A stretch of DNA of 41,290 bases from positions 1 to 41,290 of the forward strand of contig JAGTUY010000273.1 in assembly GCA_018224455.1 (NCBI GenBank). Reading direction: 5' to 3'. Made by a program: the position numbers and the translations under genes. This document shows, piece after piece, positions 1 through 38,132 of the stretch. How positions within the stretch are numbered: the first letter of the stretch is position 1; each line of letters opens with the position of its first letter. The notes beneath the pieces were generated by a model, which was given only the letters and a program-made list of their open reading frames with translations, searched no databases and was not told the DNA's origin. Source of the stretch: Desulfosarcina sp. Lineage in GTDB: Bacteria > Desulfobacterota > Desulfobacteria > Desulfobacterales > Desulfosarcinaceae.

Positions 1-1040
1 CATTGTATGAAAAACTGGGCTTCCAACGGGTACCGGTCTTTTGCATCAAACGCAAAAACCAGATCAACGAGCCGTATTTTACGGCATCTGCGCCGGAAGA
101 AAAACTCAACCCCTACGCCCGCATCATTACCGACGAAGCCCGGCGGCGTGGCATCGGCGTGGCGGTGCTCGATGAGAAACACAACTATTTTAAACTGATG
201 CATGGCGGCCGATCGATGGTCTGCCGCGAATCGCTGACTGAACTTACCTCGGCGATTGCCATGAGCCGTTGCGATGACAAGCGATTGACCCATGGCCTGC
301 TGAGGGCGGCCGGGTTGAAGGTTCCCCGACAATTCACGGTAAAGGTGGACGATGGTGAAAGCAATACTGCCGTTTTGGAAGAACTGAAACGGGTGGTGGT
401 CAAGCCAGCCCGGGGGGAGCAGGGCAACGGCATCAGTGTCGATGTGCGGTCGCCGGAAGCCCTTGAAAAAGCGGTCGCATGGGCCGGTCAATTCTGCCCG
501 GACATCATTGTCGAGTCTTACGTGCAAGGCGAGGATCTTCGCCTGATCGTGATCGATCAGCAGGTGGTCGCCGCAGCGGTCCGCCGGCTGCCGGTAATCG
601 TCGGCACCGGGCGCCACAGTATCAGCGAACTGATTCAAAAATATAATCGTCGCCGAGCCAGCGCCACCGATGGAGAGAGCCGGATACCGCTGGATGACGA
701 AACCCGGCGCTGCATCCGACAGGCCGGGCATAATCTGGATGACGTCATCACTGCCGAAAAAAAAATAACGGTGCGCAAAACCGCCAATCTGCATACCGGC
801 GGCACGATCGAAGATGTGACCGACATCATTCATCCGACAGTAGTCGAAGCCGCCGAACAGGCGGCCACGGTTCTGAACATCCCCGTGACCGGGTTGGATA
901 TGATTGTTCCCAATCTAAAGGAGTCCGAATACGTCATCATCGAAGCCAATGAACGCCCGGGTCTGGCCAATCACGAACCGCAGCCCACCGCCGAACGATT
1001 TATCGATCTGCTTTTTCCCCAAACCGCCACGTCAGCCTGA
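1..1040 (+). CDS. ngg: N-acetylglutaminylglutamine synthetase (GNAT acetyltransferase + cyanophycin-synthetase-like ATP-grasp), 5' truncated by window edge
   Basis: Begins with the GNAT C-terminal motif LYEKLGF, followed by ATP-grasp motifs VVKPARGEQGNGISV, EDLRLIVID, ANLHTGG and IIEANERPGLANH. Directly upstream of an M42 peptidase, as in NAGGN clusters. Confidence 0.85.
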   Translation, partial: LYEKLGFQRVPVFCIKRKNQINEPYFTASAPEEKLNPYARIITDEARRRGIGVAVLDEKHNYFKLMHGGRSMVCRESLTELTSAIAMSRCDDKRLTHGLLRAAGLKVPRQFTVKVDDGESNTAVLEELKRVVVKPARGEQGNGISVDVRSPEALEKAVAWAGQFCPDIIVESYVQGEDLRLIVIDQQVVAAAVRRLPVIVGTGRHSISELIQKYNRRRASATDGESRIPLDDETRRCIRQAGHNLDDVITAEKKITVRKTANLHTGGTIEDVTDIIHPTVVEAAEQAATVLNIPVTGLDMIVPNLKESEYVIIEANERPGLANHEPQPTAERFIDLLFPQTATSA

Positions 1041-1056
1041 TTGGAGGTTGTGATCA

Positions 1057-2193
1057 GTGAATCCCATTGCCATCGACATCGACTATCTCAAGCAGATGCT
1101 TATTTCGCTGCTGAATATTCCCAGCCCATCCGGCTACACGGACCAGATCGTTCATTTTGTGGGCCAGGAGCTGCAACAGCTTGGCATCACCTATAATGTA
1201 ACCCGTCGCGGGGCGATCCGTGCCACATTGAAGGGTCGCAGTCGCAATGCGCTGGATCGTGCCATTGCTGCCCATCTGGACACCCTGGGTGCCATGGTCC
1301 GGCGGGTGGAATCCAGTGGTCGTCTGGCTATCTCTCCAGTAGGAACCTGGTCCAGCCGCTTTGCGGAAGGGGCCCGTGTAACCGTCTATACCGAGAGTGG
1401 ACCGATCCGCGGAACAGTGCTGCCGCTGAAGGCATCCGGACACGCATACGGGGAAGCGGTGGACGCCCAACCTGTTGGATGGGACCATGTGGAGGTCCGC
1501 GTCGATGATGACACCCGTATCCTCGATCGGTTGAGAAAAACCAATGTCCAGGTCGGTGATTTTGTGGCCTTTGATACGCTGCCGGAAATTTCCACCGATG
1601 GATTTATCAACGCTCGCCATTTGGATGACAAAGCCGGTGTCGCCATCCTTCTATCAACCGCCAAAGCGATCATTGACGCCCGGATTGTCCTGCCCATCGA
1701 TTGCCATTTGATTTTCACCATTTTCGAAGAGGTTGGATCAGGTGCATCCGCGGCGGTTTATGGCGATGTTGCCGAAATGGTGGTCATCGATCATGCCCCG
1801 GTCGCCCCCAACCAGAACGCCACGGAATTCAGCGCCGTAATCGGCATGATGGACCAGACCGGTCCCTTTGACTATCATTTGAACCGTAAGCTGTTTACCC
1901 TCGGCAAGGAGAATGAAATTGCGCTGGTAAAGGATGTTTTCCGCTTCTATCGCAGCGATTCGGCATCAGCGATCGAGTCTGGAAGCGACACACGTACCGC
2001 ATTGGTATGTTTTGGGGTGGATGGATCACATGGATACGAACGGACGCATATGTCTTCATTGACGGCGGTAGCTGACCTGGTGGTTAATTATATTCAAAGT
2101 GAGCCGACCTTCATGCGAGACAAAGATGAAATGTCGTCCTTGAATGGATTTCCGCACCAGCCGGACAGAGAAGTCATTCAAATTAAAACCTGA
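1057..2193 (+). CDS. M42 family metallopeptidase, osmoprotectant NAGGN system type
   Basis: IPSPSG, AHLDTLG, RHLDDKAG, FEEVG and SHGYERTH metal-ligand motifs. GTG start with GGAGG RBS upstream. Adjacent to ngg. Confidence 0.88.
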   Translation: MNPIAIDIDYLKQMLISLLNIPSPSGYTDQIVHFVGQELQQLGITYNVTRRGAIRATLKGRSRNALDRAIAAHLDTLGAMVRRVESSGRLAISPVGTWSSRFAEGARVTVYTESGPIRGTVLPLKASGHAYGEAVDAQPVGWDHVEVRVDDDTRILDRLRKTNVQVGDFVAFDTLPEISTDGFINARHLDDKAGVAILLSTAKAIIDARIVLPIDCHLIFTIFEEVGSGASAAVYGDVAEMVVIDHAPVAPNQNATEFSAVIGMMDQTGPFDYHLNRKLFTLGKENEIALVKDVFRFYRSDSASAIESGSDTRTALVCFGVDGSHGYERTHMSSLTAVADLVVNYIQSEPTFMRDKDEMSSLNGFPHQPDREVIQIKT

Positions 2194-2510
2194 TTCATAC
2201 ATACAAACGCCCCCGTAGCCGTTCCGGCCTTCTTGCTCATTAGCAAAGATTGGGCAAAATCTAAAAACAGCCAAAACATACAACGATGTCCACACCTGCC
2301 ATCCTCTTCAAGATGAACAATTTTCCGTTGGCTGCCAACCGTGTGGTCATTCCCATTCATGATCTGGTTCTCCCGAAACAATTCTATCATTTTTTTTAAT
2401 GCCGTCATTGGTTTTTTCGCTTTACGCCTTAAAATCTTATATTTCCTCATTTGAATGTGAGATAGTCGAAAATCAGAAGCAGCTGACCAAAAAAATGAAA
2501 ATGCGGAGCC

Positions 2511-4697
2511 ATGAAACTATCCCAAACCAAGCTTTCAGAAAAATCGATGCGACTGCTCAACAAGCTGTTGCGTGAAAATCCAAGGCTTCGAGCCATCTAT
2601 GAAAACGCCGATTGTGAGGATGCTTCTCGGCACGCCTTGCGAGAATGGGCACAGGAAGTCATCGCCGACCATCCGACCGCCCGACGCTACTATCGGCGGG
2701 AAGCGGCAGGGCCGCGAACGTACACTGAACTCAGGTGGGCAGACCTGGCTGCCATTCGCATCCTGGACTACCTGGACCATGCCGGCCTGGAGTTTAAAAA
2801 CCCCTTTCGGGTGAGCAAACCGATACGCAACGATCCCTTCCAGTTCGTATGGCTGGGGGTGAAAACGGGCAGAGGCGGAGCCAAGCCGCTTTTCTTTGAA
2901 GACATGATTCAACTGTTTCGTCAGTTGACCGGCCAGCTGCCTCAGCCAAGACCCGATCGCCAGACTCTTCTGCGCTGGATGTCACGCTGGAAGCACGGCC
3001 AGGAACCGGATGTGGTCAAGCAGCAGGAAGCCAATAAAGAGCGAATCATAAAAATCCTGATCGACCGAATTGAGAGCTGTGAACCCGGCGACAGCCGGTA
3101 TGCCTTCAAAACGGGGATGACCCGGTCGGAAAAATTGGCGAAAGTCAGGCAATGGTGGGGCGATTACCGCTTTCACCTCAGGTTTGCGGTTCGCTCCCCA
3201 GGCTTGCTCAATGAACTGTTAGATGACTCGTTAGACGCCAATACACAAAAACTTCTCGATAAAGCAGAAAAAAAGGGAATCCCCTTTTTCGTCAACCCGT
3301 ACTATCTTTCCCTGTTGAGCGTCAAACACTCTGATTTTATGGCTGGTTCCGACATGGCCATCCGCCACTACGTGATCTATAGCAAACAACTGGTCGACCA
3401 ATTTGGCAATATCGAAGCATGGGAGAAGGAGGACAAGATAAAGCCGGGCAAGCCCAATGCAGCGGGGTGGCTGCTGCCCTCAACCCAAAATGTTCATCGC
3501 CGCTACCCCGAAGTCGCCATCTTGATACCGGAAACAATGGGTCGTGCCTGCGGGGGCCTGTGTGTCTCCTGTCAACGCATGTACGATTTCCAGAGGGGGG
3601 GGAACCTTGGTTTCAACCTGGAAAAGCTCCATCACAATGAGACCTGGGAAGAAAAATTGCGGCGTTTACTGGACTATTACGAACAGGACACCCAGCTGCG
3701 GGACATACTGATTACCGGCGGTGACGCCTTGATGAGCCGCGATCAATCCCTTGAAAATATCCTGAATGCCGTTTATGAGATGGCGGTTCGTAAAAAAGAG
3801 GCCAACCTATCCCGGCCGAATGGTGGTAAATATGCGGAGATAGTCAGAATAAGGCTCGGCACCCGCCTGCTGGCATATCTGCCGCAACGGGTTACCCCGC
3901 AACTGGCGAAGATTCTTGGCCAATTCAGGAATCGGGCATTGGATGCAGGCCTGAAGCAATTCGTCATTCAAACTCATTTTGAAAGCCCTATCGAGGTAAC
4001 CCCCGAAGCCTGCAAGGCGGTCAGGCGGCTGTTGTCCGCCGGCTGGATGGTTGTCAATCAGCTGGTATTCACCTCGGCTGCATCCAGACGGGGGCATACC
4101 GCCATGCTTCGCAAGGTTTTGAATGATATCGGTGTAATAACTTACTACACCTTCTCGGTAAAAGGGTTTCTCGAAAACACCTTCAATTATGCAACCAATG
4201 CGCGGGCTGTTCAGGAACAGGACGAAGAGAAGTGCTTTGGACGGATACCGGAACAATTCCGGGATGCCATCAGCGCTTTGCCCTTTGAAACCCTAAGAAT
4301 GGTCGAAAAGCTGGCCACATTGCGGCAGCAGGCGGACATTCCGTTTGTGGCGACGGACCGAAATGTAATCAACCTTCCGGGCATCGGCAAAAGCATGACC
4401 TTCCGTACGATCGGGCTTACCCGTTGGGGCAGGCGAATACTTGAGTTCGACCATGACCACAACCGTTGGCACAGCCCTATCATTGACCGGATGGGCAAGA
4501 TCATCATCATCGAAAGCAAGCCGGTCGGCGCCTATTTGCATCAACTTGAGGAAATGGGGGAAAATGTGGCCGAGTATGAGAGCCTGTGGGGATATTCGAT
4601 CGGTGAAACCGAATCCAGACCGCCCCTGTTTGAATACCCTCGCTATGATTTCAAGGTTACGAAAAAAATTTCCAACCTTGCCCTGACGGGTGGATGA
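2511..4697 (+). CDS. Large KamA-family radical SAM/PLP 2,3-aminomutase-like protein
   Basis: HRRYPEVAIL, CGGLCVSC (CxxxCxxC, 3549-3572), LITGGDALM, IRLGTR, QTHFESP, NQLV and LPGIGK (putative PLP Lys). Long N-terminal extension. Confidence 0.85.
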   Translation: MKLSQTKLSEKSMRLLNKLLRENPRLRAIYENADCEDASRHALREWAQEVIADHPTARRYYRREAAGPRTYTELRWADLAAIRILDYLDHAGLEFKNPFRVSKPIRNDPFQFVWLGVKTGRGGAKPLFFEDMIQLFRQLTGQLPQPRPDRQTLLRWMSRWKHGQEPDVVKQQEANKERIIKILIDRIESCEPGDSRYAFKTGMTRSEKLAKVRQWWGDYRFHLRFAVRSPGLLNELLDDSLDANTQKLLDKAEKKGIPFFVNPYYLSLLSVKHSDFMAGSDMAIRHYVIYSKQLVDQFGNIEAWEKEDKIKPGKPNAAGWLLPSTQNVHRRYPEVAILIPETMGRACGGLCVSCQRMYDFQRGGNLGFNLEKLHHNETWEEKLRRLLDYYEQDTQLRDILITGGDALMSRDQSLENILNAVYEMAVRKKEANLSRPNGGKYAEIVRIRLGTRLLAYLPQRVTPQLAKILGQFRNRALDAGLKQFVIQTHFESPIEVTPEACKAVRRLLSAGWMVVNQLVFTSAASRRGHTAMLRKVLNDIGVITYYTFSVKGFLENTFNYATNARAVQEQDEEKCFGRIPEQFRDAISALPFETLRMVEKLATLRQQADIPFVATDRNVINLPGIGKSMTFRTIGLTRWGRRILEFDHDHNRWHSPIIDRMGKIIIIESKPVGAYLHQLEEMGENVAEYESLWGYSIGETESRPPLFEYPRYDFKVTKKISNLALTGG

Positions 4698-4874
4698 ATT
4701 CGCAAAGGCAGTCTTTTTTTTGGGGGGTTACGGACGTGCAACGATGGCGGATATCTCAAAAGATGCAGAATTGAGTGCCGAAATTCCGTATTCTAAGAGA
4801 AAGAATGAATTAGGGTTAAAAATTTGGGTTTAGCGGCAATTCACATCCCAGGTTCCTTTGCGGCGAATGTTTCG

Positions 4875-4904
4875 TTGACACATTTGCCCTGGTGCCGCTA
4901 TGGT
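4875..4904 (+). promoter_or_regulatory. Candidate sigma70 promoter for cinA-manC
   Basis: TTGACA-N18-TATGGT about 50 bp upstream of the cinA start. Confidence 0.45.
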
Positions 4905-4955
4905 CCTATGCGATGATCCTATTCGAGATATCTGAGCATTAAAGGGAGCCGTCAA

Positions 4956-6203
4956 ATGAAAGCGGAAATACTGGCGACGGGAGATGAGATCCGGTCCGGC
5001 GCCCTGGTGGACAGCAACTCGGCGTATATTTCGGAAAAGTTGGAGGAAAACGGCATCGAAGTGGTGCGACACACCTGCGTGGGGGACGATCTGCCCCTGT
5101 TGGTCGCAGCCCTTCGTGAGATCGGCGACCGTGTGGATCTGGCGGTGGTCACCGGTGGACTGGGGCCCACCAGCGATGATCTCACTGCCGAAGCGGCAGC
5201 CAGAGCCGCCGGTGTTGAACTGAGATTCAATCAGCCCGCCTTTGAAAACGTCGAGAGCTTTTTTAAAACGTTCAACCGCCCCATGACCGAATCCAACCGC
5301 AAGCAGGCGCTGCTTCCCGACGGCAGCAACCTATTGTACAATCCGGTGGGTACAGCACCCGGGTTTTCCCTGACCATGCAGAAGTGTCGGTTTTTCTTTC
5401 TTCCGGGGGTGCCCTATGAGATGAGACGCATGCTGACTGAGCAGGTGATGCCTGAAATGCTTTCGCTGCAGGGCGATGCGGCCATGCACAGCCGGGTGAA
5501 GACCATTACCACCTTCGGGCTGCCTGAATCGCTGGCCGGTGAAAAAGTGGCCGGTGTGGAAGCCGCTTTTCCGGGCGTCAAGCTGGGCCTTCGTGCCAAT
5601 TTCCCGCAGATCCAGGTCAAGCTCTACGGGCGGGACACGGATCCGGCCCTGCTGGATCAACGGATGGACCAGGCGGGTCGGTGGGCGCTGCAACGGTTGG
5701 GACAAAACGTGATATCTGAAAACGGCGAACGGATGGAAGCCGTGGTGGGAAGACTGCTGTTGGAACGATCGGCCTCCATCGGACTGGCGGAAAGCTGTAC
5801 CGGCGGGCTGCTGGCCAACTGGCTGACCAACGTGGCCGGTAGTTCGGACTATTTTCTCTTTTCCGGCGTCACCTATTCAAACCGGGCCAAGATCGATGTG
5901 CTGGGTGTCCGGCCCGAAACGCTGGAAAGACATGGCGCGGTTCACGAAAAAACGGCCCGGGAGATGGCCGAAGGGGCCCGGCGGGTAGCCGGCAGCACCT
6001 ACGGGCTTTCCACCAGCGGCATTGCCGGCCCTGACGGTGGAACCGAAGACAAACCGGTGGGAACCGTGTGTGTCGGATACGCCGGGCCGGATCGGTCTTT
6101 CGGCCGTCGGCTGTACTTCCCATTCGGAAAGCGCCTGATGAACAAGAAAATATTTACCATGGCGGCGCTGGATATCCTGCGCAAGGAGTTGTTAAAAATA
6201 TGA
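4956..6203 (+). CDS. cinA: CinA family protein (MoCF-like ADP-ribose pyrophosphatase domain + PncC NMN deamidase domain)
   Basis: TGDEIRSG..DSN, GGLGPTSDDLT and PGVPYEM in the N-terminal domain; AESCTGG, YSNRAK and SGIAGPDGG..KPVGTV in the C-terminal domain. Confidence 0.93.
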   Translation: MKAEILATGDEIRSGALVDSNSAYISEKLEENGIEVVRHTCVGDDLPLLVAALREIGDRVDLAVVTGGLGPTSDDLTAEAAARAAGVELRFNQPAFENVESFFKTFNRPMTESNRKQALLPDGSNLLYNPVGTAPGFSLTMQKCRFFFLPGVPYEMRRMLTEQVMPEMLSLQGDAAMHSRVKTITTFGLPESLAGEKVAGVEAAFPGVKLGLRANFPQIQVKLYGRDTDPALLDQRMDQAGRWALQRLGQNVISENGERMEAVVGRLLLERSASIGLAESCTGGLLANWLTNVAGSSDYFLFSGVTYSNRAKIDVLGVRPETLERHGAVHEKTAREMAEGARRVAGSTYGLSTSGIAGPDGGTEDKPVGTVCVGYAGPDRSFGRRLYFPFGKRLMNKKIFTMAALDILRKELLKI

Positions 6204-7636
6204 TTCTACCGGTAATTCTTGCAGGCGGCAGCGGCACCCGACTCTGGCCGCTTTCCCGAGCCCTTTATCCCAAGCAGCTCATCAGCCTGGTTGACCGGCA
6301 CACCATGCTTCAAAATACGATCCTTCGGCTGGATGGCTTGGACGGTGCAGAAAAACCGGTCGTGATATGCAACGACGAATACCGGTTCATGGTGGCCGAG
6401 CAGCTTCGTCAGATCGACATCCAGGCCGATTCGATCATTCTGGAACCGGTGGGCAGAAATACCGCTCCCGCCCTGGCCGTGGCGGCCATACGGGCAATGG
6501 AGACGGGTCACGATCCCGTGCTGTTAATCCTGCCGGCCGATCACCACATTCAGCGAACTGCTGAATTTCAGCGATTGATCGAGTCGGGGCATGCATACGC
6601 TCAGGCGGGACGAATGATTACATTCGGCATTGTGCCGGATAAACCGGAAACCGGATATGGCTACATTAAAATGGGTGGCCCGTTACCCCCGGCAGGCGGG
6701 GATGCAACGGCCGTGAGCATTGCGGCTTTCGTGGAAAAACCGGATCTGGCGACCGCCCGGCGATATGTAACCTCAAAAGCCTATTGCTGGAACAGCGGCA
6801 TGTTCATGTTCAAGGCGTCACAGGTAGTCAGGGAATTGGATAAGTTTGTTCCCGACATCGTTGCTGCCTGTCGGCAAGCCATCGAAAAAGGGCGGGCCGA
6901 CCTGGATTTTTTCCGACTCGATAAAGCGGCTTTTGCTGCCTGCCCCAGCGATTCCATCGATTATGCCGTGATGGAAAAAACGGATAGCGGTGCCATGCTG
7001 CCCATGGCGGCAGGATGGAACGATCTGGGATCGTGGGAAGCGCTGTGGCATGTTGGCCAGAAAGACGATCTAGGCAATGTGGTCAAGGGAGATGTGGTGC
7101 TGCACGACGTGGGGGATTCCTATCTGCACGCCGAACACCGCCTGATCGCAGCGGTGGGATTGAAGGATCACATCGTTGTGGAGACCTCGGATGCGGTGAT
7201 GATCTCCCCCCGTGACCGGGTCCAGGATGTCAAGGGGCTGGTGGATCAACTCAAGTCCCAGAATCGGGAAGAAACGCGCACGCATAAGCGGGTTTACCGG
7301 CCGTGGGGCACGGTGGATCAATTGGTAACAGGGAACCGTTTCCAGGTGAACCGGATCACGGTCAAGCCCGGCGGCGTGTTGTCTCTTCAAAAACATTTCA
7401 ACCGGTCCGAGCACTGGATCGTCGTTCGCGGGTCTGCGCAGGTCACCAAGGCCGACGAACGTCTGTTGCTCAAAGAGGACAGTTCGACCTACATTTCCGC
7501 CGGTATTGCCCATCGACTTGAAAATCCGGGGAAAATCCCGCTGGAACTGATCGAGGTGCAGACAGGCGGGTATATCGGAGAGGATGATATCACCCGGCTT
7601 GAGGATATCTACGGCCGGCACCGGCAGGATGAGTAA
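6200..7636 (+). CDS. manC: Mannose-1-phosphate guanylyltransferase / mannose-6-phosphate isomerase
   Basis: PVILAGGSGTRLWPLSR..PKQ, EPVGRNTAPA, FVEKPD, WNSGMF, SIDYAVME and a C-terminal cupin (RPWG). ATG at 6200 overlaps the cinA stop (ATGA). Confidence 0.93.
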   Translation: MILPVILAGGSGTRLWPLSRALYPKQLISLVDRHTMLQNTILRLDGLDGAEKPVVICNDEYRFMVAEQLRQIDIQADSIILEPVGRNTAPALAVAAIRAMETGHDPVLLILPADHHIQRTAEFQRLIESGHAYAQAGRMITFGIVPDKPETGYGYIKMGGPLPPAGGDATAVSIAAFVEKPDLATARRYVTSKAYCWNSGMFMFKASQVVRELDKFVPDIVAACRQAIEKGRADLDFFRLDKAAFAACPSDSIDYAVMEKTDSGAMLPMAAGWNDLGSWEALWHVGQKDDLGNVVKGDVVLHDVGDSYLHAEHRLIAAVGLKDHIVVETSDAVMISPRDRVQDVKGLVDQLKSQNREETRTHKRVYRPWGTVDQLVTGNRFQVNRITVKPGGVLSLQKHFNRSEHWIVVRGSAQVTKADERLLLKEDSSTYISAGIAHRLENPGKIPLELIEVQTGGYIGEDDITRLEDIYGRHRQDE

Positions 7637-7640
7637 ATGT

Positions 7641-8081
7641 TTATCGACTGTGAACCAGCAGGGTCACCGGTCCGTCATTGACGATCTCGACCCGCATCAT
7701 CGCACCGAATCGGCCGGTGTGGGTGTCGACGCCCAGCTTTTCCAAACGTTCCACAAAATGCTGGTAGAGTCGCTGGGCCAGAACCGGTTCGGCGGCATCG
7801 ATGAAGGAGGGCCGCCTGCCTTTGCGGCAGTCCGCCAGCAGGGTGAATTGGGAAACCACGAGTATCTGCCCCCCCATCTCCATCAATGAGCGATTCATTT
7901 TGCCTTGCTGGTCTTCGAAGATGCGCAGGTTGACCACTTTGGCGGCCAAGTATTCGGCATCGGTTTCCCCATCTCCATCGGCCACCCCCAAAAGGACATT
8001 GAGGCCGGGGCCGATAGCGTCCACCAACAATCCGTCAATGGTGACGCTGCTGCTTATGACTCGCTGAACCACGGCGATCAA
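7641..8081 (-). CDS. dtd: D-aminoacyl-tRNA deacylase
   Basis: [23 protein letters not shown] and NDGPVT motifs. Confidence 0.95.
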
Positions 8082-8093
8082 AGGGAACCCTTT

Positions 8094-10436
8094 CTATCGG
8101 CCGGACCTTTTTTGAAAGGCGTCGGCAAAAGGGTTGTTGAAGGGCATTGGCGATGCCGGTTTGGGTGCAGTTTTTGGCTTGGGCCGGTTGCCGGCCGGCC
8201 GTGTCTTCCGGGGATGATCGGCCCGGGGCTTCGGTTCCGGTCTTTTTCCCGGTTGACTTTTCATGGACAGCGAGATGCGTTTGCGGGGCAGGTCCACATC
8301 CATTACGGTGACGGTGACTTTTTGCTGAACACTGACCACATCTGACGGGGTTTTCACGAATCGGTCACACAGCTCGCTGATATGGACCAACCCGTCCTGG
8401 TGAACGCCGATATCCACGAAGGCGCCGAAATTGGTGACGTTGGTCACGATTCCGGGCAGCTTCATGCCCGGTTCAAGATCCTGGATGGCAGAGACGTTCG
8501 CGTCGAAAGAAAAATGCTCGAAGGGCTCCCGGGGATCCCTGCCGGGCTTGGCCAGCTCGTCCAGGATGTCGGTAAGGGTCGGCAGTCCGATGGTATCGGT
8601 GACATAGCGGTGCAGATCGATTTTTTTGCGCAGGCCGGCATCGTTCATCAGCTCGGCCACGCTGCAGCCCAGGTCTCCGGCCATGGCCTGGACCACGGGG
8701 TAGCTTTCCGGGTGGACCGCACTGGCATCCAGTGGGTTTTTTCCGCTTTTGATCCTTAAAAAACCGGCGCATTGCTCGTAGGCTTTGGGTCCCAGCCGTT
8801 TGACCTTTTTCAGGTCTTCGCGACCGGTAAAGGCGCCATGTTCGTCCCGGTGGCCGACGATGTTTTTGGCCAGTTGTGGCCCTAAGCCGGAGACATACGT
8901 GAGCAACTGGACGCTGGCCTGGTTCACTTCCACCCCCACGCCATTGACACAGCTGGCCACCACGTCGTCCAAGGACCCTTTCAGGGCGAACGGGTCTACG
9001 TCGTGCTGGTACTGACCCACGCCGATGGACTTGGGGTCGATTTTAACCAATTCTGACAAGGGGTCTATCAGCCGGCGTCCGATGGAAACGGCGCCGCGCA
9101 CGGTAAGGTCGTGCTCGGGAAATTCCTGGCGGGCGATTTCCGATGCCGAGTACACCGATGCCCCGCTTTCGTTGACCATGATCACCGGCAGCGATTTTGC
9201 GTCGACGGTTGCTTCCACGAAGGCCTGGGTCTCCCGGCTGGCGGTGCCGTTGCCCACGGCCACCGCTTCGATGTCAAATTGACGGCATAATGCAAAGAGG
9301 GTCTGTGCGGCGACGGCTGCCTGTCGCTCCGAGGTGTGGGGGTAAATGGTGTCGTTGTGCAGCAGCTTTCCCTGGCGGTCGAGGCACACGACCTTGCAGC
9401 CGGTTCGAAAACCCGGGTCGATGCCCATGACCCGTTTGGCCCCCAGGGGGGAGGCCAGCAAGAGTTGGCGAAGGTTGTCGGCAAAGACGCGGATGGCTTC
9501 GGCATCGGCCCGTTGTTTGACGGCTACCCGTACCTCGGTTTCCATGGAGCGGGACAGCAGGCGTTTATAGGCATCATGAGCCGCGGTCCGCACCTGCTCG
9601 GCATCGGGGCCGTCGCCCGTTACGAAAAGATCCTCTAAAATGGCGATGGCCAGCTCCGGAGGCGGGGCAATGGACAGACCCAGTATCTCCTCCTTCTCTC
9701 CACGACGCATGGCCAGGATTCGGTGGGATGGTGATGTTGCCACGGGTTCCTCCCACTGGAAATAGTCTTTGTACTTGGCCCCTTCGCCCTCTTTGCCGGC
9801 CACTACGCGACTGGTGATAACCCCTTTTTCAAAAAACAGGTGGCGAACCCGAGACCGGGCCTGCTGGTCTTCGTTAATCGTTTCGGCAATGATGTCCCGT
9901 GCGCCGGACAGGGCCGCTTCAACGCAATCTACGGTTTTTTCAGGGTCCACATAGCCATCGGCCAGCGCGATCGGGTCCGCCCCGGCTTGGGCCAGAATGG
10001 CCAGGGCCAGGGGTTCCAATCCCTTTTCGCGGGCAATCGTGGCCTTGGTCCGCCGCTTGGGCCGGTAGGGCAGGTAGATGTCCTCCAAACGGGTCATCGA
10101 TTCAGCGGCCTGCACCTGGGCTTTGAGATCCTCGGTCAGATGGCCGTGCTGCTCCAGAGAATTCAGGATGGCTTCCCGCCGGCTGTCCAACTCCTGCAAC
10201 TGGGTCAGCCGGTCCCGGATGGTGGACACCGCTACTTCATCCAGACTGCCGGTGGCCTCTTTGCGGTAGCGGGCAATGAAGGGCACGGTGGCGCCATCTT
10301 CCAGCAGCTGGGCGACGGCTTTGATCTGCGCCTCATTCAGGCGCATTTCTGCGCTGATCGCGTCGATATGGGAAAGGTTCGTTGGGTTTGTTGAGTTCAT
10401 TGAGTTTGTTGAGTTTATTGGGTGTGTTGAGTTCAA
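8094..10436 (-). CDS. tex: Tex family RNA-binding transcription accessory protein (start uncertain: TTG 10436 or ATG 10400)
   Basis: GATVPFIARYRKEATG, LEDIYLPY, IDPGFRTGCK, NESGASVYSAS, IGVGQYQHDV and a C-terminal S1 domain (FGAFVDIGVHQDGLVHIS). Confidence 0.95.
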   Translation of the reverse strand: MNSTHPINSTNSMNSTNPTNLSHIDAISAEMRLNEAQIKAVAQLLEDGATVPFIARYRKEATGSLDEVAVSTIRDRLTQLQELDSRREAILNSLEQHGHLTEDLKAQVQAAESMTRLEDIYLPYRPKRRTKATIAREKGLEPLALAILAQAGADPIALADGYVDPEKTVDCVEAALSGARDIIAETINEDQQARSRVRHLFFEKGVITSRVVAGKEGEGAKYKDYFQWEEPVATSPSHRILAMRRGEKEEILGLSIAPPPELAIAILEDLFVTGDGPDAEQVRTAAHDAYKRLLSRSMETEVRVAVKQRADAEAIRVFADNLRQLLLASPLGAKRVMGIDPGFRTGCKVVCLDRQGKLLHNDTIYPHTSERQAAVAAQTLFALCRQFDIEAVAVGNGTASRETQAFVEATVDAKSLPVIMVNESGASVYSASEIARQEFPEHDLTVRGAVSIGRRLIDPLSELVKIDPKSIGVGQYQHDVDPFALKGSLDDVVASCVNGVGVEVNQASVQLLTYVSGLGPQLAKNIVGHRDEHGAFTGREDLKKVKRLGPKAYEQCAGFLRIKSGKNPLDASAVHPESYPVVQAMAGDLGCSVAELMNDAGLRKKIDLHRYVTDTIGLPTLTDILDELAKPGRDPREPFEHFSFDANVSAIQDLEPGMKLPGIVTNVTNFGAFVDIGVHQDGLVHISELCDRFVKTPSDVVSVQQKVTVTVMDVDLPRKRISLSMKSQPGKRPEPKPRADHPRKTRPAGNRPKPKTAPKPASPMPFNNPFADAFQKRSGR
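10377..10436. repeat. Degenerate 9-bp tandem repeat (consensus GTTTGTTGA / TCAACAAAC), about 6.5 copies
   Basis: gttcgttgg gtttgttga gttcattga gtttgttga gtttattgg gtgtgttga gttcaa. Encodes the NST/NSM/NPT triplets at the Tex N-terminus. Confidence 0.85.
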
Positions 10437-10440
10437 ATTG

Positions 10441-10468
10441 GCTCATGGCTCAAAGCCGAGAGCTCATG
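10441..10468. repeat. Degenerate 7-bp tandem repeat (GCTCATG-like), 4 copies
   Basis: gctcatg gctcaaa gccgaga gctcatg. Confidence 0.65.
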
Positions 10469-10481
10469 GAAGAAAGATTTA

Positions 10482-10516
10482 TCCGATCTCCGTCCGCTGA
10501 CTTCAGTTTTCCGGAT
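10482..10516. repeat. Highly degenerate 7-bp tandem repeat (TCCGACC/TCTGACC-like), about 5 copies, overlapping the topA stop
   Basis: tccgatc tccgtcc gctgact tcagttt tccggat. Confidence 0.4.
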
Positions 10517-12797
10517 GTTCAACAGGCGCCATGCGGTGCCGGCAGTCGCGGTTGGGGCAGACGTGCGAGGTGCCGTCCCGCTTGGTCGTTTTTTCCACCA
10601 TGTAGGCATTGCCACACGCGGGGCAGGGGATTGCCACCGGCTTGTCCCAGCTGGCAAAACTGCATTTTGGATACTGGTTGCACCCGTAAAAGATTTTACC
10701 CCGCTTGGAGGATTTTTCCACGATCTCGCCGCCACAGCCCTTTTCGGGGCAGGCGACCCCAGTGGGCTTGGCATTGGGTCCACCGCTGAGGGACTGGGTA
10801 TGTTTGCATTCCGGGTAGCCGGTGCAGGCGAGAAAATCCCCATATCTGCCCCGTTTGACCACCATGGGCTTGCCGCACAGCTCGCAGACTTTGTCGGTCG
10901 CTTCGCTTTGTTGAACCGGTGCCACCGGGGCGATGATGCCCTTTTCATCCCGCTCGTAATCACTGGAGTAGGTGCATTCCGGATAGGCGGAACAGGCCAG
11001 AAAATGACCGTTTTTACCCATCTTGATGCGCAGGGCGTTTTTTTGGCACAACGGGCAGGTCAGGTCCGTGGGCATGCCCACGCCCTTGACGCTGAGCATG
11101 CTTTCACCGGCTTCTGCGAGCTTCCGGCTGAAGGGGCCGTAAAACTGGTTGAGGATGGTCAATGCCTCCACCTCGGATTGTTCCACCCGGTCCAGGTCGG
11201 TCTCCAGGCGGGCCGTGAACTCTACATCGAGGATTTCCGGGAAGCTGGCAATCAGCAGATCGTTGACGATGAATCCCAATTCCGTGGGCCTGAAATACCT
11301 GTTGATCAGTTCCACGTAGCCTTTGCCTCGAATGGTAGAGAGAATGGCCGCATACGTGCTTGGCCGGCCAATGCCGTTTTCCTCCAGCTCTTTGACCAGG
11401 GAGGCTTCTGAAAATCGTGGCGGGGGCTGGGTAAAATGCTGCTTGGGTTCGATTCCCAGCAGTTTTAGCGGGGACTTTTCCGCCAGTTCCGGCAGCGGCT
11501 GGCTTTTCTTGTTGCTTTCCGCTTCGTCATCGGCACTTTGATACACGGCGAGAAAGCCGGGAAATTTTACCGAGGAGCCGCTGGCAGTGAATGTATAGTC
11601 ATCGGCGGCGATGGAGAGGGTCTTCTGATCGATGAGCGCCTGGGCCATCTGGGACGCGACGAAACGCTGCCAGATCAGGGTATACAAGGCCAGCTGATCT
11701 TTTGACAGATAGCGTTTGACTTGATCCGGCGTGTGATAGACCGAGGTCGGACGAATGGCTTCATGGGCATCCTGCGCCTTGTTCTTATTCTTGAAAAAGC
11801 GTGGCCGGCTGATGGCGTACGCCTTACCGAAACGCTGGTTGATCAACGCCAACGCCTCCTGTGCCGCCTCGTCGGCGATGCGGGTGGAGTCTGTGCGCAT
11901 GTAGGTGATCAAACCAACGGGCTCACCCGGCCCCAGGTCGATGCCTTCATAGAGCTGTTGAGCAACCATCATGGTTTTTTTGGCGGAAAAGCGAAGTTTT
12001 TGAATCGATTCCTGTTGGAGCTTGCTGGTGATAAAGGGTGGCAGGGGATTGCGCCGTGTGGTCCGTTTGATGACTTTGTCAACGACGAATTGAGCTGTCT
12101 CCAGCTCCTTTAAGATGGCCGTGGCTGCAGCTTCATCCGGAATTTCTATTTTTTTTCCATTTTTGCGCACCAGCCGGGCCGCAAATGCCGGTGGTACCAT
12201 TCCCTTCAGATGGGCGGTGATGGACCAGTACTCCACGGGTGTGAATGCCTGAATGGCCCGTTCCCTGTCGCAGATAATGCGCACGGCCACGGACTGAACC
12301 CGGCCGGCACTGAGGCCTCCTTTCACCTTTCGCCAAAGCAGGGGCGAGATCTGGTAACCCACCAATCGGTCCAGGATGCGGCGGGTTTGTTGGGCTTCAT
12401 ATTTGTCCCGGTCCATATCCTTGGCCTTTGACATGGCCTCGAGAATCGCCTTTTTGGTCAGTTCGTGAAACAGCACCCGGTGAAAAACGCGGCCCTTTTT
12501 TTTAAGCACTTCGGAGGTGTGCCAGGCAATGGCCTCCCCTTCGCGGTCCGGGTCAGGGGCGAGATAGATGTCTGTCGCATCGCCGGCGGCCGACTTCAAC
12601 TGGCTCAACACTTTTGTTTTTCCGGGAATCGTCTTGTATTGCGGAGCGAAGTCGTTTTCGATGTCGATGCCCAGGTCTTTGCTGGGCAGGTCCTTGATGT
12701 GTCCCACGGTTGCGGCCACGTTGTAGTCGTTGCCGAGATATTTTTTAATGGTTCTAACCTTTGTGGGTGATTCTACGACCACCAGGGGTTTACTCAC
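10503..12797 (-). CDS. topA: DNA topoisomerase I (type IA)
   Basis: VVESPTK, DPDREGEAI, SAGRVQS, GLITYMRTDS (catalytic Tyr), GIGRPSTYA and three C-terminal C4 zinc ribbons. Confidence 0.97.
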   Translation of the reverse strand: MSKPLVVVESPTKVRTIKKYLGNDYNVAATVGHIKDLPSKDLGIDIENDFAPQYKTIPGKTKVLSQLKSAAGDATDIYLAPDPDREGEAIAWHTSEVLKKKGRVFHRVLFHELTKKAILEAMSKAKDMDRDKYEAQQTRRILDRLVGYQISPLLWRKVKGGLSAGRVQSVAVRIICDRERAIQAFTPVEYWSITAHLKGMVPPAFAARLVRKNGKKIEIPDEAAATAILKELETAQFVVDKVIKRTTRRNPLPPFITSKLQQESIQKLRFSAKKTMMVAQQLYEGIDLGPGEPVGLITYMRTDSTRIADEAAQEALALINQRFGKAYAISRPRFFKNKNKAQDAHEAIRPTSVYHTPDQVKRYLSKDQLALYTLIWQRFVASQMAQALIDQKTLSIAADDYTFTASGSSVKFPGFLAVYQSADDEAESNKKSQPLPELAEKSPLKLLGIEPKQHFTQPPPRFSEASLVKELEENGIGRPSTYAAILSTIRGKGYVELINRYFRPTELGFIVNDLLIASFPEILDVEFTARLETDLDRVEQSEVEALTILNQFYGPFSRKLAEAGESMLSVKGVGMPTDLTCPLCQKNALRIKMGKNGHFLACSAYPECTYSSDYERDEKGIIAPVAPVQQSEATDKVCELCGKPMVVKRGRYGDFLACTGYPECKHTQSLSGGPNAKPTGVACPEKGCGGEIVEKSSKRGKIFYGCNQYPKCSFASWDKPVAIPCPACGNAYMVEKTTKRDGTSHVCPNRDCRHRMAPVEHPEN

Positions 12798-16644: not shown

Positions 16645-16734
16645 AAAGCCCCAGCCGCCGTTTTACCCCTGGACCGACAGCAGGTGAAACGGCGGTCGAA
16701 TCAGGTTAATGGTCCGGTGGCAATGGGGCTTTTT
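16645..16734. other. Intergenic structured element (nested inverted repeats)
   Basis: Outer perfect 9-bp stem (16645-16653 with 16724-16732) and inner 13-14-bp stem (16654-16667 with 16683-16696). Confidence 0.5.
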
Positions 16735-16753
16735 AGGAGAAACCGATTTAGAT

Positions 16754-17125
16754 TTAGGATTTGCCGTTGTCGGTTTTGTCTTTCTTTTCTTTTTTGGGCG
16801 CGGCCGGGGGCGGGGAGGTCTGCATCAACCCGGACACGCTGCTCCGGTTGACTTTCACGCGAACTTTTTCAGCGATCTCCACGGTCAACGCGCTTTCCGA
16901 GACGCCGGTGATCCGTCCGTGAAGGCCGCCACTGGTGATAATCCGGTCACCGGTTTTCAGGTTGTCAATCATCTGCCGGTGCTCTTTGGTTTTTTTCTGT
17001 TGGGGACGGATCAGCAGAAAATAAAAGATGACAAACATGAGAATCAGCGGAATAAACGACGCGAATCCTCCCGAACCACCTGGGGCGCCTGCCCCCCCCT
17101 GTCCCATAGCGTAAGCGATATTCAT
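16754..17125 (-). CDS. yajC: Preprotein translocase subunit YajC
   Basis: IFYFLLIRPQQKK and GDRIITSGGLHG. AGGAGG upstream of ATG 17125. Upstream of secDF. Confidence 0.95.
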   Translation of the reverse strand: MNIAYAMGQGGAGAPGGSGGFASFIPLILMFVIFYFLLIRPQQKKTKEHRQMIDNLKTGDRIITSGGLHGRITGVSESALTVEIAEKVRVKVNRSSVSGLMQTSPPPAAPKKEKKDKTDNGKS

Positions 17126-17229
17126 TGGTATCAAAACCTCCTGTCAGATATTTCAAGCGGTTGCCGGTGAATTCTTGAAATCGCGTTTACCGGCGTCACG
17201 CTTGTTTGGCAACCGTTAAAAGTGGCGCT

Positions 17230-21734: not shown

Positions 21735-22253
21735 ATGCAGAACGGATGGAAACGAAGAGCGGCGGTCGTATCGATGCTGCTGCTAACCGCGTGCGGCTAT
21801 CATTTTACTGGCAGCGGCGACTTTCCGGCGGGCGTATCCCGGGTGTTTATACCCATCCTGGAGAACCGGTCTGCCGAAACCGGCGCGGAAAGCCTCTTCA
21901 CCAACGACCTGATCTATGAATTCACCAGGAACCGCAAAGAAAGTCTGGCCCAGGACCGGTCTTCGGCCGATGGTATTCTGACCGGGACCATTGTTTCAAT
22001 CTTGGTGGAAAATATTTCCCGCTCCACGGTTTCGACCGCAGTGGAGCGACGTGTGACCGGCATACTGAACCTGCGGCTGGAATCTCCGGCGGGTCGGATA
22101 CTCTGGTCGTCGGGAAATATCGTCGAGCGCCAGGCCTATTCGGTTGTGGATGGAAATAAAACGGCAACGGATCGGAACAAGTCCGATGCCATTGCCGTCG
22201 TTTCCGAAAAACTGGCAGAATCCGCCTTCAGCCGGCTGACGGATGATTTCTGA
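21735..22253 (+). CDS. lptE: LPS assembly lipoprotein LptE
   Basis: Lipobox LTAC followed by GYHF. Position directly after leuS. Confidence 0.8.
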   Translation: MQNGWKRRAAVVSMLLLTACGYHFTGSGDFPAGVSRVFIPILENRSAETGAESLFTNDLIYEFTRNRKESLAQDRSSADGILTGTIVSILVENISRSTVSTAVERRVTGILNLRLESPAGRILWSSGNIVERQAYSVVDGNKTATDRNKSDAIAVVSEKLAESAFSRLTDDF

Positions 22254-22342
22254 TGATTGAGAACCCCTGCAGCCGCAGTCGAAGCGCATCCGGCAATGAC
22301 CATTCACCGCCGCTTCTTCCTGCCCGCGGATGCCGGGACGGG

Positions 22343-22606
22343 TCAGGCTTGCTGAGCGTTGACCTGTCGGTTGAGACGGGAAACTTTGCGGGAGGCGGTT
22401 TTTTTGTGGAGCACCCCTTTTTTTGCCGCTTTGTCGATGGCCGATTTGGCCGCGTTGAGCTGCTCAACGGCATTTTCCGCACCCTGAACCACGGCAAGGC
22501 GCACGTCCTTGACCACGTTTTTTACCCGAGTTTGAACTGCTTTGTTCCGCAGGCGCCGACGCTCATTCTGGCCGGCGCGCTTCAATGCTGATTTATGGTT
22601 GGCCAC
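22343..22606 (-). CDS. rpsT: 30S ribosomal protein S20
   Basis: ANHKSALKR, IDKAAKKGVLHKKTASRKVSRL. AAGGAG RBS and GTG start. Confidence 0.97.
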   Translation of the reverse strand: MANHKSALKRAGQNERRRLRNKAVQTRVKNVVKDVRLAVVQGAENAVEQLNAAKSAIDKAAKKGVLHKKTASRKVSRLNRQVNAQQA

Positions 22607-29255: not shown

Positions 29256-29287
29256 AGGGCCGACAGTTGGGAGGCCAGGAAAGACCG

Positions 29288-29860
29288 ATGATTGATCCGG
29301 CGGCACTTGCCTTTGACATCGATGGTGTAATCGCCGACACCATGCACCTGTTTCTGGATATCCTCAGGGATCACTACGATGTCCACACGGTGCGATACGA
29401 CGACATCACCTGCTACCGGCTGGAACATTGCCTGGATCTGGACGGGGACGTTCTGGAGGGGGCGGTAGCCCGGATTCTCGACGGGGGGTACCGGGCGGTG
29501 CTGAAACCCATTCCCGGCGCCGGGCCGGTGTTGAGGCGCATCGGTGAGGCGACGGGGCGCATCTTGATGGTGACGGCCCGGCCCGAGCCGGGTCCCATCG
29601 AGCGCTGGATGAACCACCTGCTCGATGGTCAGTATCGCCGGGCCAGAATCGTGGCAACCGGTTCATTCGAGGCCAAAACCGACGTGCTGCTGGAAAACGG
29701 GATCAAATGGTTCGTGGAGGATCGCCTGGAAACCTGTCACCTGCTCAACGCTGCCGGTATCGCGCCCGTCGTGTTCCGCCAGCCATGGAACCAGGAACCC
29801 CATGATTACCTTCAGGTGGAATCCTGGCAGGAACTCGAACAGCGGATCGCTTTCCCATGA
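29288..29860 (+). CDS. HAD-superfamily hydrolase (5'(3')-nucleotidase-like)
   Basis: FDIDGVIADT (motif I), VTAR (II), K (III), VEDR (IV) and PWN. Confidence 0.82.
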   Translation: MIDPAALAFDIDGVIADTMHLFLDILRDHYDVHTVRYDDITCYRLEHCLDLDGDVLEGAVARILDGGYRAVLKPIPGAGPVLRRIGEATGRILMVTARPEPGPIERWMNHLLDGQYRRARIVATGSFEAKTDVLLENGIKWFVEDRLETCHLLNAAGIAPVVFRQPWNQEPHDYLQVESWQELEQRIAFP

Positions 29861-36244: not shown

Positions 36245-37639
36245 ATGGCTGAAAAACCCTGGGACGGACGGTTTTCCGAGAAAACCGACAAAAGCGTGGA
36301 GGCGTTTACCGCCTCCATCGCCTATGACTGCCGGCTATACCCCTACGACATCGCCGGCAGCATTGCCCACTGCAGGATGCTGGCCGCAGCCGGTATCATC
36401 ACCGACGAAGAGGCCATCGGCCTGGTGGAAGGGCTGGGAATTATCAAACGGGAGTTGGATCGGGGCGAGTTCATCTTCGACGACAGCCTGGAAGACATCC
36501 ACATGCACATCGAGGCCCGACTGCTTCAAGTGGCGGGGAAGGTGGCGCAGAAGCTGCATACCGCCCGCAGCCGCAACGATCAGGTCGCCCTGGACGTGCG
36601 CATGTATCTGCGCGACGAGACGCATCGAACCATCGATCTGCTGCATACGCTGCGGACGGTGCTGGTGGATCTGGCCAACGGGCACCAGGATGTGGTCATG
36701 CCCGGTTACACCCATACCCAGCGGGCCCAGCCGGTACTGTTTGCCCACCACATGATGGCCTATTACGAGATGTTCACCCGGGATCAGGCACGCTTCTCCG
36801 ACTGTCTTGACCGTATCAACGTGATGCCGCTGGGCGCCGCGGCACTGGCAGGCACCACCTATCCCATCGACCGGCGCTATGTGGCCGATCTACTGGATTT
36901 TTCCCAGGTCAGTGCCAACAGCATGGATGCGGTGTCGGACCGTGATTTTGCTATGGAATATCTTGCGGCCGCAAGCATCTGCATGGTTCATCTGAGCCGG
37001 TTGTCCGAGGAATTGGTGCTGTGGTCCACCTCGGAATTTGGCTTTATCACCCTTTCGGATGCGTTTGCCACGGGTAGCAGCATCATGCCCCAGAAAAAAA
37101 ATCCGGACGTTCCGGAGATTGTTCGAGGAAAAACCGGTCGGGTGTTCGGTTCGCTGATAGCCCTGCTCACCCTCATGAAAAGCCTGCCCATGTCCTACAA
37201 CCGGGATATGCAGGAAGACAAGGAACCGCTCTTCGATGCCGCTGACACGATCAAGGCCTGCCTTTCCATCAACATCCAGATGATCCCCCGGATCACCGTT
37301 AACCGGGAGATCATGCGCAAGGCCGCGTCCGTCGGATTCCTCAACGCCACGGACATGGCCGATTATCTGGTGAACCAGGGCATGCCCTTTCGAAAAGCCC
37401 ACGCTTGTGTCGGAGGCGCCGTGGCCTATGCATTGGACAAGGGCAAGGAGCTGGACCAACTGACCCTGGATGAGCTCAGATCATTCTCGCCCTTGATCAA
37501 GGCGGATATTTTCGATCACCTGACCCTGGAGTTCATGATCGACCGCCGGCGGAGCCTGGGGGGAACGGCAACGGAAAACGTGGCCCGGGCGATTGCGGAG
37601 GCCAGAAAGGCGCTGGCCGGTGAAGCGAACGGTGACTGA
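36245..37639 (+). CDS. argH: Argininosuccinate lyase
   Basis: W.GRF, EDIH, HTARSRNDQ, PGYTH.Q.AQP, GSSIMPQKKNPD and YNRDMQEDK. Confidence 0.97.
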   Translation: MAEKPWDGRFSEKTDKSVEAFTASIAYDCRLYPYDIAGSIAHCRMLAAAGIITDEEAIGLVEGLGIIKRELDRGEFIFDDSLEDIHMHIEARLLQVAGKVAQKLHTARSRNDQVALDVRMYLRDETHRTIDLLHTLRTVLVDLANGHQDVVMPGYTHTQRAQPVLFAHHMMAYYEMFTRDQARFSDCLDRINVMPLGAAALAGTTYPIDRRYVADLLDFSQVSANSMDAVSDRDFAMEYLAAASICMVHLSRLSEELVLWSTSEFGFITLSDAFATGSSIMPQKKNPDVPEIVRGKTGRVFGSLIALLTLMKSLPMSYNRDMQEDKEPLFDAADTIKACLSINIQMIPRITVNREIMRKAASVGFLNATDMADYLVNQGMPFRKAHACVGGAVAYALDKGKELDQLTLDELRSFSPLIKADIFDHLTLEFMIDRRRSLGGTATENVARAIAEARKALAGEANGD

Positions 37640-38132
37640 ACGGACAGCGGTGAGACGACGCGTTTGGTCCGCAAAAGGACCGATTCTGGCGGGGCTTTTT
37701 TTAATGCTCAACGTCGGTTATTTGGGTTGCGGGGTCAAGGGGCCTCCGGTGCCGCCCAGACAGCCGCCGGTGCCGGCGGTGGCGGATCTGGCATACGCGG
37801 TGACTGACCAAACCGTCACACTGACCTGGCGTCTGCCGGGGGCGCTTTCGGCCAAACAGGCAAAAAATGCGGCATTCGGCGTCTACCGCTCCCGGACAGC
37901 ACTTGGGGAATCGGACTGCGATGGTTGTCCCCTGGCATTTGAAAAAGCGGCATCGGTGCCATATGTTGATACGCAATCCAACCGGTTTTCCATCGACGCC
38001 CCCCTGGAACCCGGTTATCGCTATGTATTCAACGTGCGGCTGGAGACGGACGGCGGTGCCGGACCCGATTCAAACCCCGTGCAGGTCGACCATCTGCCCG
38101 ATATGCCCTCCGGAGTGTTGGAGACCCCATGA
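37632..38132 (+). CDS. Lipoprotein with LppL/LptM-like N-terminal motif and FN3-like beta domain (start uncertain)
   Basis: Basic N-region, hydrophobic core, YLGC lipobox, CGVKGPP, LTW, CxxCP and YRY. Overlaps both the argH stop and the dapF start. Confidence 0.7.
   Translation: MTERTAVRRRVWSAKGPILAGLFLMLNVGYLGCGVKGPPVPPRQPPVPAVADLAYAVTDQTVTLTWRLPGALSAKQAKNAAFGVYRSRTALGESDCDGCPLAFEKAASVPYVDTQSNRFSIDAPLEPGYRYVFNVRLETDGGAGPDSNPVQVDHLPDMPSGVLETP

Follow-up and report, generated by a model that had tools for sequence, protein, structure and literature searches.

A gene in the 41,290-nucleotide window analysed here, the whole stretch from Desulfosarcina sp., encodes a long KamA-type radical-SAM/PLP aminomutase that probably converts glutamate to beta-glutamate and was likely acquired from Bacteroidales. 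The gene consists of a single open frame on the forward strand, and its 728-aa translation is referred to as P0001 (Table 1). The residues Lys551 and Asn621 replace the two aspartates that bind lysine in lysine 2,3-aminomutase (LAM), and P0001 is therefore likely a glutamate 2,3-aminomutase. What appears to be new is a Bacteroidales-centred branch of ~730-aa long Lys/Asn aminomutases, one member of which was likely imported beside an osmolyte operon. Misassembly at this site was considered and rejected, as the gene lies whole within public contigs that connect it to its neighbours on either side, with no joints listed; the contigs come from three runs of a single study, which may be the source.

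Table 1. Mapped features of the aminomutase gene and its borders (positions within the window)
Feature	Position	Strand	Basis
End of NAGGN osmolyte operon: N-acetylglutaminylglutamine synthetase, C-terminal part (3-1040); M42 peptidase (1057-2193)	3..2193	+	NCBIfam; context
P0001, long KamA-type radical-SAM/PLP aminomutase, ~730-aa Bacteroidales-centred branch	2511..4697	+	Translation, NCBIfam, homologue search, AF2
N-terminal domain, residues 1-172, mostly helical, absent from LAM	2511..3026	+	pLDDT mostly high; alignment to 2a5h begins at residue 173
CxxxCxxC [4Fe-4S] motif, C347, C351, C354; Ser353 non-aromatic; Arg356 next	3549..3578	+	Motif itself 3549-3572; census
TGGD motif (LAM SGGD 169-172)	3714..3725	+	Homologue alignment, census
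YYTFSVK, residues 545-551; Lys551 (4161-4163) at LAM Asp293 position	4143..4163	+	Alignments, census
Family-specific helical insertion of ~32 aa, residues ~577-610	4239..4340	+	AF2 model, MAFFT, hhalign
INLPGIGK, residues 620-627; Asn621 (4371-4373) at LAM Asp330; Lys627 (4389-4391) at PLP-binding Lys337	4368..4391	+	Alignments, census
C-terminal tail, ~33 aa past the end (WYY) of the ~600-aa family; without Cys cluster	4596..4694	+	Translation, MAFFT, hhalign
cinA, native, right edge of inserted stretch	4956..6203	+	75-84% nt identity to five genus relatives

By its modelled fold, together with the CxxxCxxC and GGD motifs, the substrate Arg and the PLP Lys, P0001 is placed in the KamA-like radical-SAM/PLP aminomutase superfamily. 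The AF2 model (pLDDT 74.5, falling below 50 around residues 299-374 and 623-626) superposes on LAM (2a5h) with a Z score of 17.9 and an rmsd of 3.0 over 312 residues, other radical-SAM folds reaching Z up to about 11. LAM is also the sole solved relative by sequence (2a5h, E 5e-11). In the structure search with the full-length model, residues 1-172 matched no fold. Among NCBIfam models, P0001 remains below the cut-off of the KamA family (TIGR00238, 141 bits against 199.2), which ~600-aa relatives exceed with 325-331 bits. The glutamate 2,3-aminomutase model (TIGR04368) gave 106 bits against a cut-off of 650, with 404 model positions against 728 aa; the lysine model (TIGR03820) gave 89 against 525.4 and the arginine aminomutase model 87 against 600. 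The glutamate model was the top substrate-specific HMM for P0001 and for the long proteins tested, although P0001 scores far under the cut-off of each of these models. Pfam, including Radical_SAM, returned no match in P0001, and DUF8427 occurs in about half of the members of the family's nearest ESM Atlas clusters. The homologue search found at least 7992 proteins, the best 120 of these having 59-99% identity, and many homologues are labelled 'lysine 2,3-aminomutase' by JGI.

The first-pass annotation had located the Cys triad, YYTFSVK and INLPGIGK at coordinates that prove exact in the translation. It had also described an N-terminal extension of more than 200 aa; the extension is present, its size being corrected to about 170-210 aa, as the structural alignment to 2a5h begins at model residue 173. 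The insertion it had noted between the latter two motifs was recovered by MAFFT and hhalign as ~32 aa at about residues 577-610. The C-terminal Cys cluster is indeed missing: the translation contains no Cys beyond Lys627, and of 204 family members with a match to that motif, 194 likewise have none. Absence of these zinc cysteines had further been taken as a mark of the enzyme type, a criterion that fails, since the Asp/Asp proteins L001, L087 and L107 also lack them in their last 60 residues.

All direct searches of P0001 or its family against LAM end ahead of the key sites, the direct hhalign comparison with the Asp/Asp set stopping at residue 523, and the register is therefore based on chained and multiple alignments. 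In chained profile alignments anchored on LAM (PDB 2a5h), Lys551 corresponds to Asp293, Asn621 to Asp330 and Lys627 to the lysine that binds PLP. By phmmer, the Lys of YYTFNMK in a ~600-aa relative (L088) falls on Asp293 of 2a5h, counted back from E299. When the ~600-aa family was aligned with 12 Asp/Asp KamA proteins (hhalign, E 8e-61), its Lys fell on that Asp and its Asn on the Asp of DAPG. The ~730-aa and ~600-aa profiles align over 560 columns (residues 6-695, E 1e-73) with K551, N621 and K627 in register, and a joint MAFFT alignment gives the same register for all three. The by-eye reading of Lys and Asn, not Asp, at these two positions is thus upheld. Conservation was assessed in a redundant census of 205 ~730-aa sequences: P0001, the best 120 homologue matches and locus ORFs >690 aa, to which three representatives and two named gut proteins were added; partial ORFs were dropped. 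K551, N621, K627, R356, the three Cys and TGGD are present in 205/205, and the ~600-aa family has Lys in 240/240 and Asn in 239/240 at the same positions. Because both Asp sites are replaced throughout the census, the many homologues called 'lysine 2,3-aminomutase' are very likely mislabelled, as had been suspected from the sequence. The mapped substrate contacts Arg356, Lys551, Asn621, Phe548 and Gln355 are identical to those of the ~600-aa family; residue roles follow those of LAM, including binding of the alpha-carboxylate by Arg134 (Arg356 here). The SAM loop of the ~730-aa branch is atypical, with Ser before the third Cys (197/205 sequences; aromatic in none), a 3-residue insertion and Val335 at LAM Arg116, and family-specific insertions occur at about 190-212, 425-441 and 577-610.

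A search of 1.84 billion representatives returned, as the best full-length matches outside the family, proteins of 566-625 aa, the inspected ones being of the ~600-aa type. The ~730-aa and ~600-aa families form one clade (SH-aLRT 98) in a tree of 49 proteins, a quick IQ-TREE search with SH-aLRT support only and a midpoint root. These two results indicate that the extension is inherited from the ~600-aa family rather than new. The N-terminal domains of the two families are homologous (hhalign coverage from residue 6), identity between the families is 26-31%, and the ~730-aa family sits on a long branch of 2.4 changes per column in the same tree. The ~600-aa family itself is likely the methanogen-type glutamate 2,3-aminomutase; a structure model of this type reached pLDDT 91.8. 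Two automatic labels serve as leads only: in the ESM Atlas, a cluster close to the ~600-aa query has Methanobacteriota as its most frequent phylum, and another, of Bacteroidota and 699 aa, carries the name 'Glutamate 2,3-aminomutase'. No Eam above the TIGR04368 cut-off was found in the 151, 301 and 121 genomes searched. The proteins nearest this model are short Clostridia proteins (L100, L101 and L178; 574-602 bits, below cut-off) that carry Lys/Thr, not Lys/Asn, and may represent a further specificity variant; in the midpoint-rooted tree they diverge basally among the short enzymes, on the side of the long clade. The second site is consequently no strict signature. A separate protein of 1357 aa (P0468) contains a ~600-aa-type aminomutase in its middle, preceded by a DnaJ-like stretch and followed by a metalloprotease-like HExxH tail, as judged by eye.

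Altogether, the residue pattern supports the original interpretation that the substrate is an acidic or amide amino acid and not lysine, with glutamate much more likely than glutamine or aspartate. The glutamate assignment is favoured by the charge reversal of the side-chain-binding positions in 205/205 sequences with the catalytic residues kept, and by the Lys that the short proteins most similar to the curated glutamate model have at the Asp293 site. Counting against it are the sub-cut-off scores, the 26-31% identity, the long branch, the atypical SAM loop, the missing Radical_SAM match, the low-confidence parts of the AF2 model, the lack of a conserved partner gene and the Lys/Thr proteins. 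By analogy with LAM chemistry, a reduced [4Fe-4S] cluster on C347, C351 and C354 would cleave SAM to a 5'-deoxyadenosyl radical, while L-Glu would displace Lys627 from PLP and form an external aldimine. The alpha-carboxylate would be held by Arg356 and the gamma-carboxylate by Lys551, with the help of Asn621. Hydrogen abstraction at C3 would then allow a 1,2-imine shift via an azacyclopropylcarbinyl radical, and return of the hydrogen would yield beta-glutamate, which may serve as a salt-protection solute.

The host, a sulfate reducer, has dsrA. The ~730-aa gene was found in 0/60 relatives and 0/400 genomes of the phylum (two candidates per genome scored, among the matches listed), as opposed to 36/151 Bacteroidales genomes. 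Its occurrence in 2/301 genomes of a phylum-wide Bacteroidota draw indicates a family centred on one order and patchy in distribution. P0001 and its three closest homologues are nested among Bacteroidales sequences (FastTree 0.996), and the flanks of the gene are native, with 74-93% nt identity to genus relatives. On this distribution, nesting and flank evidence, import from Bacteroidales is likely, most simply as the transfer of one gene. A metagenome locus (L140) has 86% nt identity over the gene alone, with different neighbours. Codon use provides weak evidence for import, since it is only mildly atypical (GC3 at the 9th percentile) and resembles that of the adjoining M42 gene. Named gut members of the family occur in Bacteroides finegoldii, Parabacteroides distasonis and Phocaeicola massiliensis. 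L039, L047, L057, G065 and G061 have the gene in tandem or in a second copy, divergent in some cases; in the first three (7000-11550), both tandem ~730-aa genes encode Lys/Asn, the second having ARTC vs GRAC before the Cys triad. In addition, large Vibrio and Pseudomonas phages (H51, H53, H56-H59) carry distant KamA-like genes with 24-26% identity to P0001.

The aminomutase gene begins 317 bp past the NAGGN operon, the rest of which, with its amidotransferase, MscS and HAD genes, lies on an overlapping contig (C265); these genes were annotated on a relative (L167) and mapped back. The operon was rejected as a conserved partner because NAGGN genes occur in 0/85 related family loci, and the pairing is thus local; the NAGGN peptidase was found in 10 of the 60 relatives, none of the 60 having the ~730-aa gene. 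ORF clustering across 80 loci revealed no conserved partner, the most recurrent cluster being sigma-54/response regulators (10 loci), and Pfam assigned unrelated functions to 66 chosen ORFs of the 591 neighbours. At the site corresponding to window 4866-4955, three relatives (L173, L175 and L176) have a divergent TrkH potassium-uptake gene upstream of cinA. In G009, ORFs there resemble a transposase by eye; in the window the place is taken by NAGGN and the aminomutase. Elsewhere in the window, five ORFs without an NCBIfam match lie amid housekeeping genes (16709-17170, 21735-22591, 29267-29860, 37593-38132).

Several observations bear on an osmotic function. An MscS channel gene adjoins or lies near the family gene in L019, L033, L034 and L052, from different taxa (4/76 loci with neighbours). 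This amounts to 4/591 neighbour ORFs vs 4/3634 in the host genome, a post hoc comparison whose profile was built from those same four; MscS proximity is therefore a weak osmotic hint and a lead only, and the four loci may have inherited the arrangement from a common ancestor. In other systems, eam/ablA are under the control of Na+ riboswitches (PMC9337991). A riboswitch search of positions 1-6000 gave no Rfam match up to E 1. Promoter and terminator scans were at chance (5 vs 3.2 expected; 7 vs 4.9 expected). The ectoine synthase search gave no match anywhere, controls included. The ~600-aa type, found in 16/60 relatives, is absent from the host genome. Furthermore, ablB, the gene for beta-lysine N-acetyltransferase, is a pseudogene (G000:C306:5349-5540, L184), with ~630 bp deleted relative to G018 and a ~60-codon C-terminal remnant; 11/24 genus relatives kept it. 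The position of the gene after the NAGGN operon, the absence of the ~600-aa type and the loss of ablB are hints that fit an osmolyte role without proving it. The host also has a separate Asp/Asp KamA (L001 at G000:C274, L001:1288-2583; 495 bits, below the AblA cut-off) without C-terminal Cys, followed by a D-Ala-D-Ala-ligase-like ATP-grasp gene (L001:2742-3758). A further KamA-like protein of 835 aa (G000:C549, L003:100-2607) consists of two aminomutase-like halves with CxxxCxxC in the first only; its YIYIPCS and ATPIGK motifs are neither Asp/Asp nor Lys/Asn, and the next gene is M23-peptidase-like by eye.

Two roles can be considered for a glutamate 2,3-aminomutase, which a recent paper associates with fermentation in bacteria and, in archaea, with the making of an osmolyte (10.1101/2025.11.21.689712). 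The status of beta-glutamate as a compatible solute is well established; early NMR work spoke against an aminomutase route in methanogens (PMC1224877). Overall, a salt-protecting role is conceivable at slightly less than an even chance; it is less obvious in gut Bacteroidales, where the family is common, which counts against it. Catabolic use, via beta-glutamate to glutaconyl-CoA and crotonyl-CoA, would differ in role only and falls within the glutamate assignment. It is rather unlikely, and given that assignment fermentation has about half the probability of the osmolyte role. The bacterial enzyme has been described for glutamate fermentation (10.1101/2025.11.21.689712) and the genome has CoA-transferase family genes, but none of the flanking genes here encodes a CoA-transferase, lyase or decarboxylase. 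Similarly, a divergent crotonase / carboxyl-transferase / biotin-carboxylase cluster lies nearby, upstream, in L039, L047 and L057, yet these are 3/80 loci with near-identical gene order, and the gene moves alone, L140 having only the gene in common.

The same radical/PLP chemistry could act on another acidic or amide substrate, converting glutamine to beta-glutamine or 2-aminoadipate to 3-aminoadipate, or acting on aspartate, where a 2,3-shift gives aspartate back and could only scramble or invert it. Such a substrate is unlikely. The long branch would suit it, as would changes peculiar to the family around the pocket and SAM loop (Ser353, Val335 and the three insertions), but all mapped substrate contacts equal those of the ~600-aa family, and Lys fits a carboxylate better than an amide. 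The tandem and second copies might likewise suggest divergence in specificity, yet both tandem copies retain Lys/Asn; the adjoining NAGGN pathway uses glutamine, but this link is not conserved. The fuller scenario, equally improbable, is that the ~730-aa branch is a new-substrate aminomutase (glutamine in one step, or 2-aminoadipate) imported beside the glutamine-based NAGGN operon, with loss of the beta-lysine acetyltransferase. Less probable still is a diverged KamA-fold protein with no free amino acid substrate, acting on protein- or carrier-bound Glu or in non-mutase radical chemistry, with extra domains that bind a partner. Large conserved additions, the atypical SAM loop and the missing Pfam match point that way; against this, the PLP and substrate residues are all invariant, the extension is common to the ~600-aa family and no partner gene is conserved. 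A lysine 2,3-aminomutase, as in the JGI labels on many homologues and with LAM 2a5h as the only solved relative, is hardly credible given that 205/205 sequences retain neither of the amine-binding Asp and have Lys in place of one, that the lysine model reaches 89 bits against a cut-off of 525, and that a separate Asp/Asp KamA exists in the genome.

The consequences reach beyond this locus. The names 'lysine 2,3-aminomutase' and 'KamA family' are attached to thousands of proteins (at least 7992 matches) that are probably not lysine enzymes, and such mislabelling would lead to errors in assigning pathways of lysine fermentation and beta-lysine osmolytes. The ~730-aa branch occurs in about a quarter of Bacteroidales, gut Bacteroides, Parabacteroides and Phocaeicola among them, and if it makes beta-glutamate, this solute would be extended to all of these. 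The branch would then also offer new scaffolds for a reaction that is sought for the design of synthetic carbon fixation (10.1101/2025.11.21.689712). Since the reasoning and the reaction are in print already, as is a long-form enzyme, the surprise is limited. A literature search, conducted mostly outside subscription papers and supplements, found no study of the ~730-aa branch, which the sequence tables of a 2022 paper could include. The first-pass annotation's suggestion of a large, perhaps uncharacterised subfamily accordingly stands for this branch and falls for long Lys/Asn enzymes in general, the methanogen enzyme having been published in 2022.

Three known systems offer the closest comparison. 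LAM (KamA/AblA of Clostridium subterminale, 2a5h; TIGR03820) shares with P0001 the fold, the Cys triad, Arg134, GGD and the equivalents of His230, Gln258, Tyr287/288 and the PLP Lys. P0001 differs from it in Asp293 to Lys, Asp330 to Asn, His131 to Ser and Arg116 to Val, in a PLP loop one residue shorter, in the long N-terminal domain, in the missing C-terminal Cys cluster and in overall sequence (about 20-23% identity). The glutamate 2,3-aminomutase Eam of Clostridioides difficile (TIGR04368), reportedly characterised by Ruzicka and Frey in 2007, resembles P0001 in the Lys at the Asp293 site, the missing C-terminal Cys cluster and the Lys/Asn pair that Eam reportedly has at LAM 293/330; the closest Eam-like proteins found, in contrast, have Lys/Thr and about 25% identity to P0001. 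The third is the glutamate 2,3-aminomutase of the methanogen Methanococcus maripaludis, said to have been reported by Tunckanat et al. in Biochemistry in 2022 as a long form with a ~160-aa extension. The ~600-aa family (L088, L120, P0289), which probably represents this enzyme, differs from the P0001 branch in that the latter is Bacteroidales-centred, has 26-31% identity to it, is about 100-130 aa longer owing to three insertions and a C-terminal tail, and has Ser instead of Tyr before the third Cys. The ~600-aa family shares with P0001 end-to-end homology including the N-terminal domain (E 1e-73), a WYY/WGY C-terminal end, the Lys/Asn pair, CQR after the third Cys, a PxxGK PLP loop and membership of one clade.
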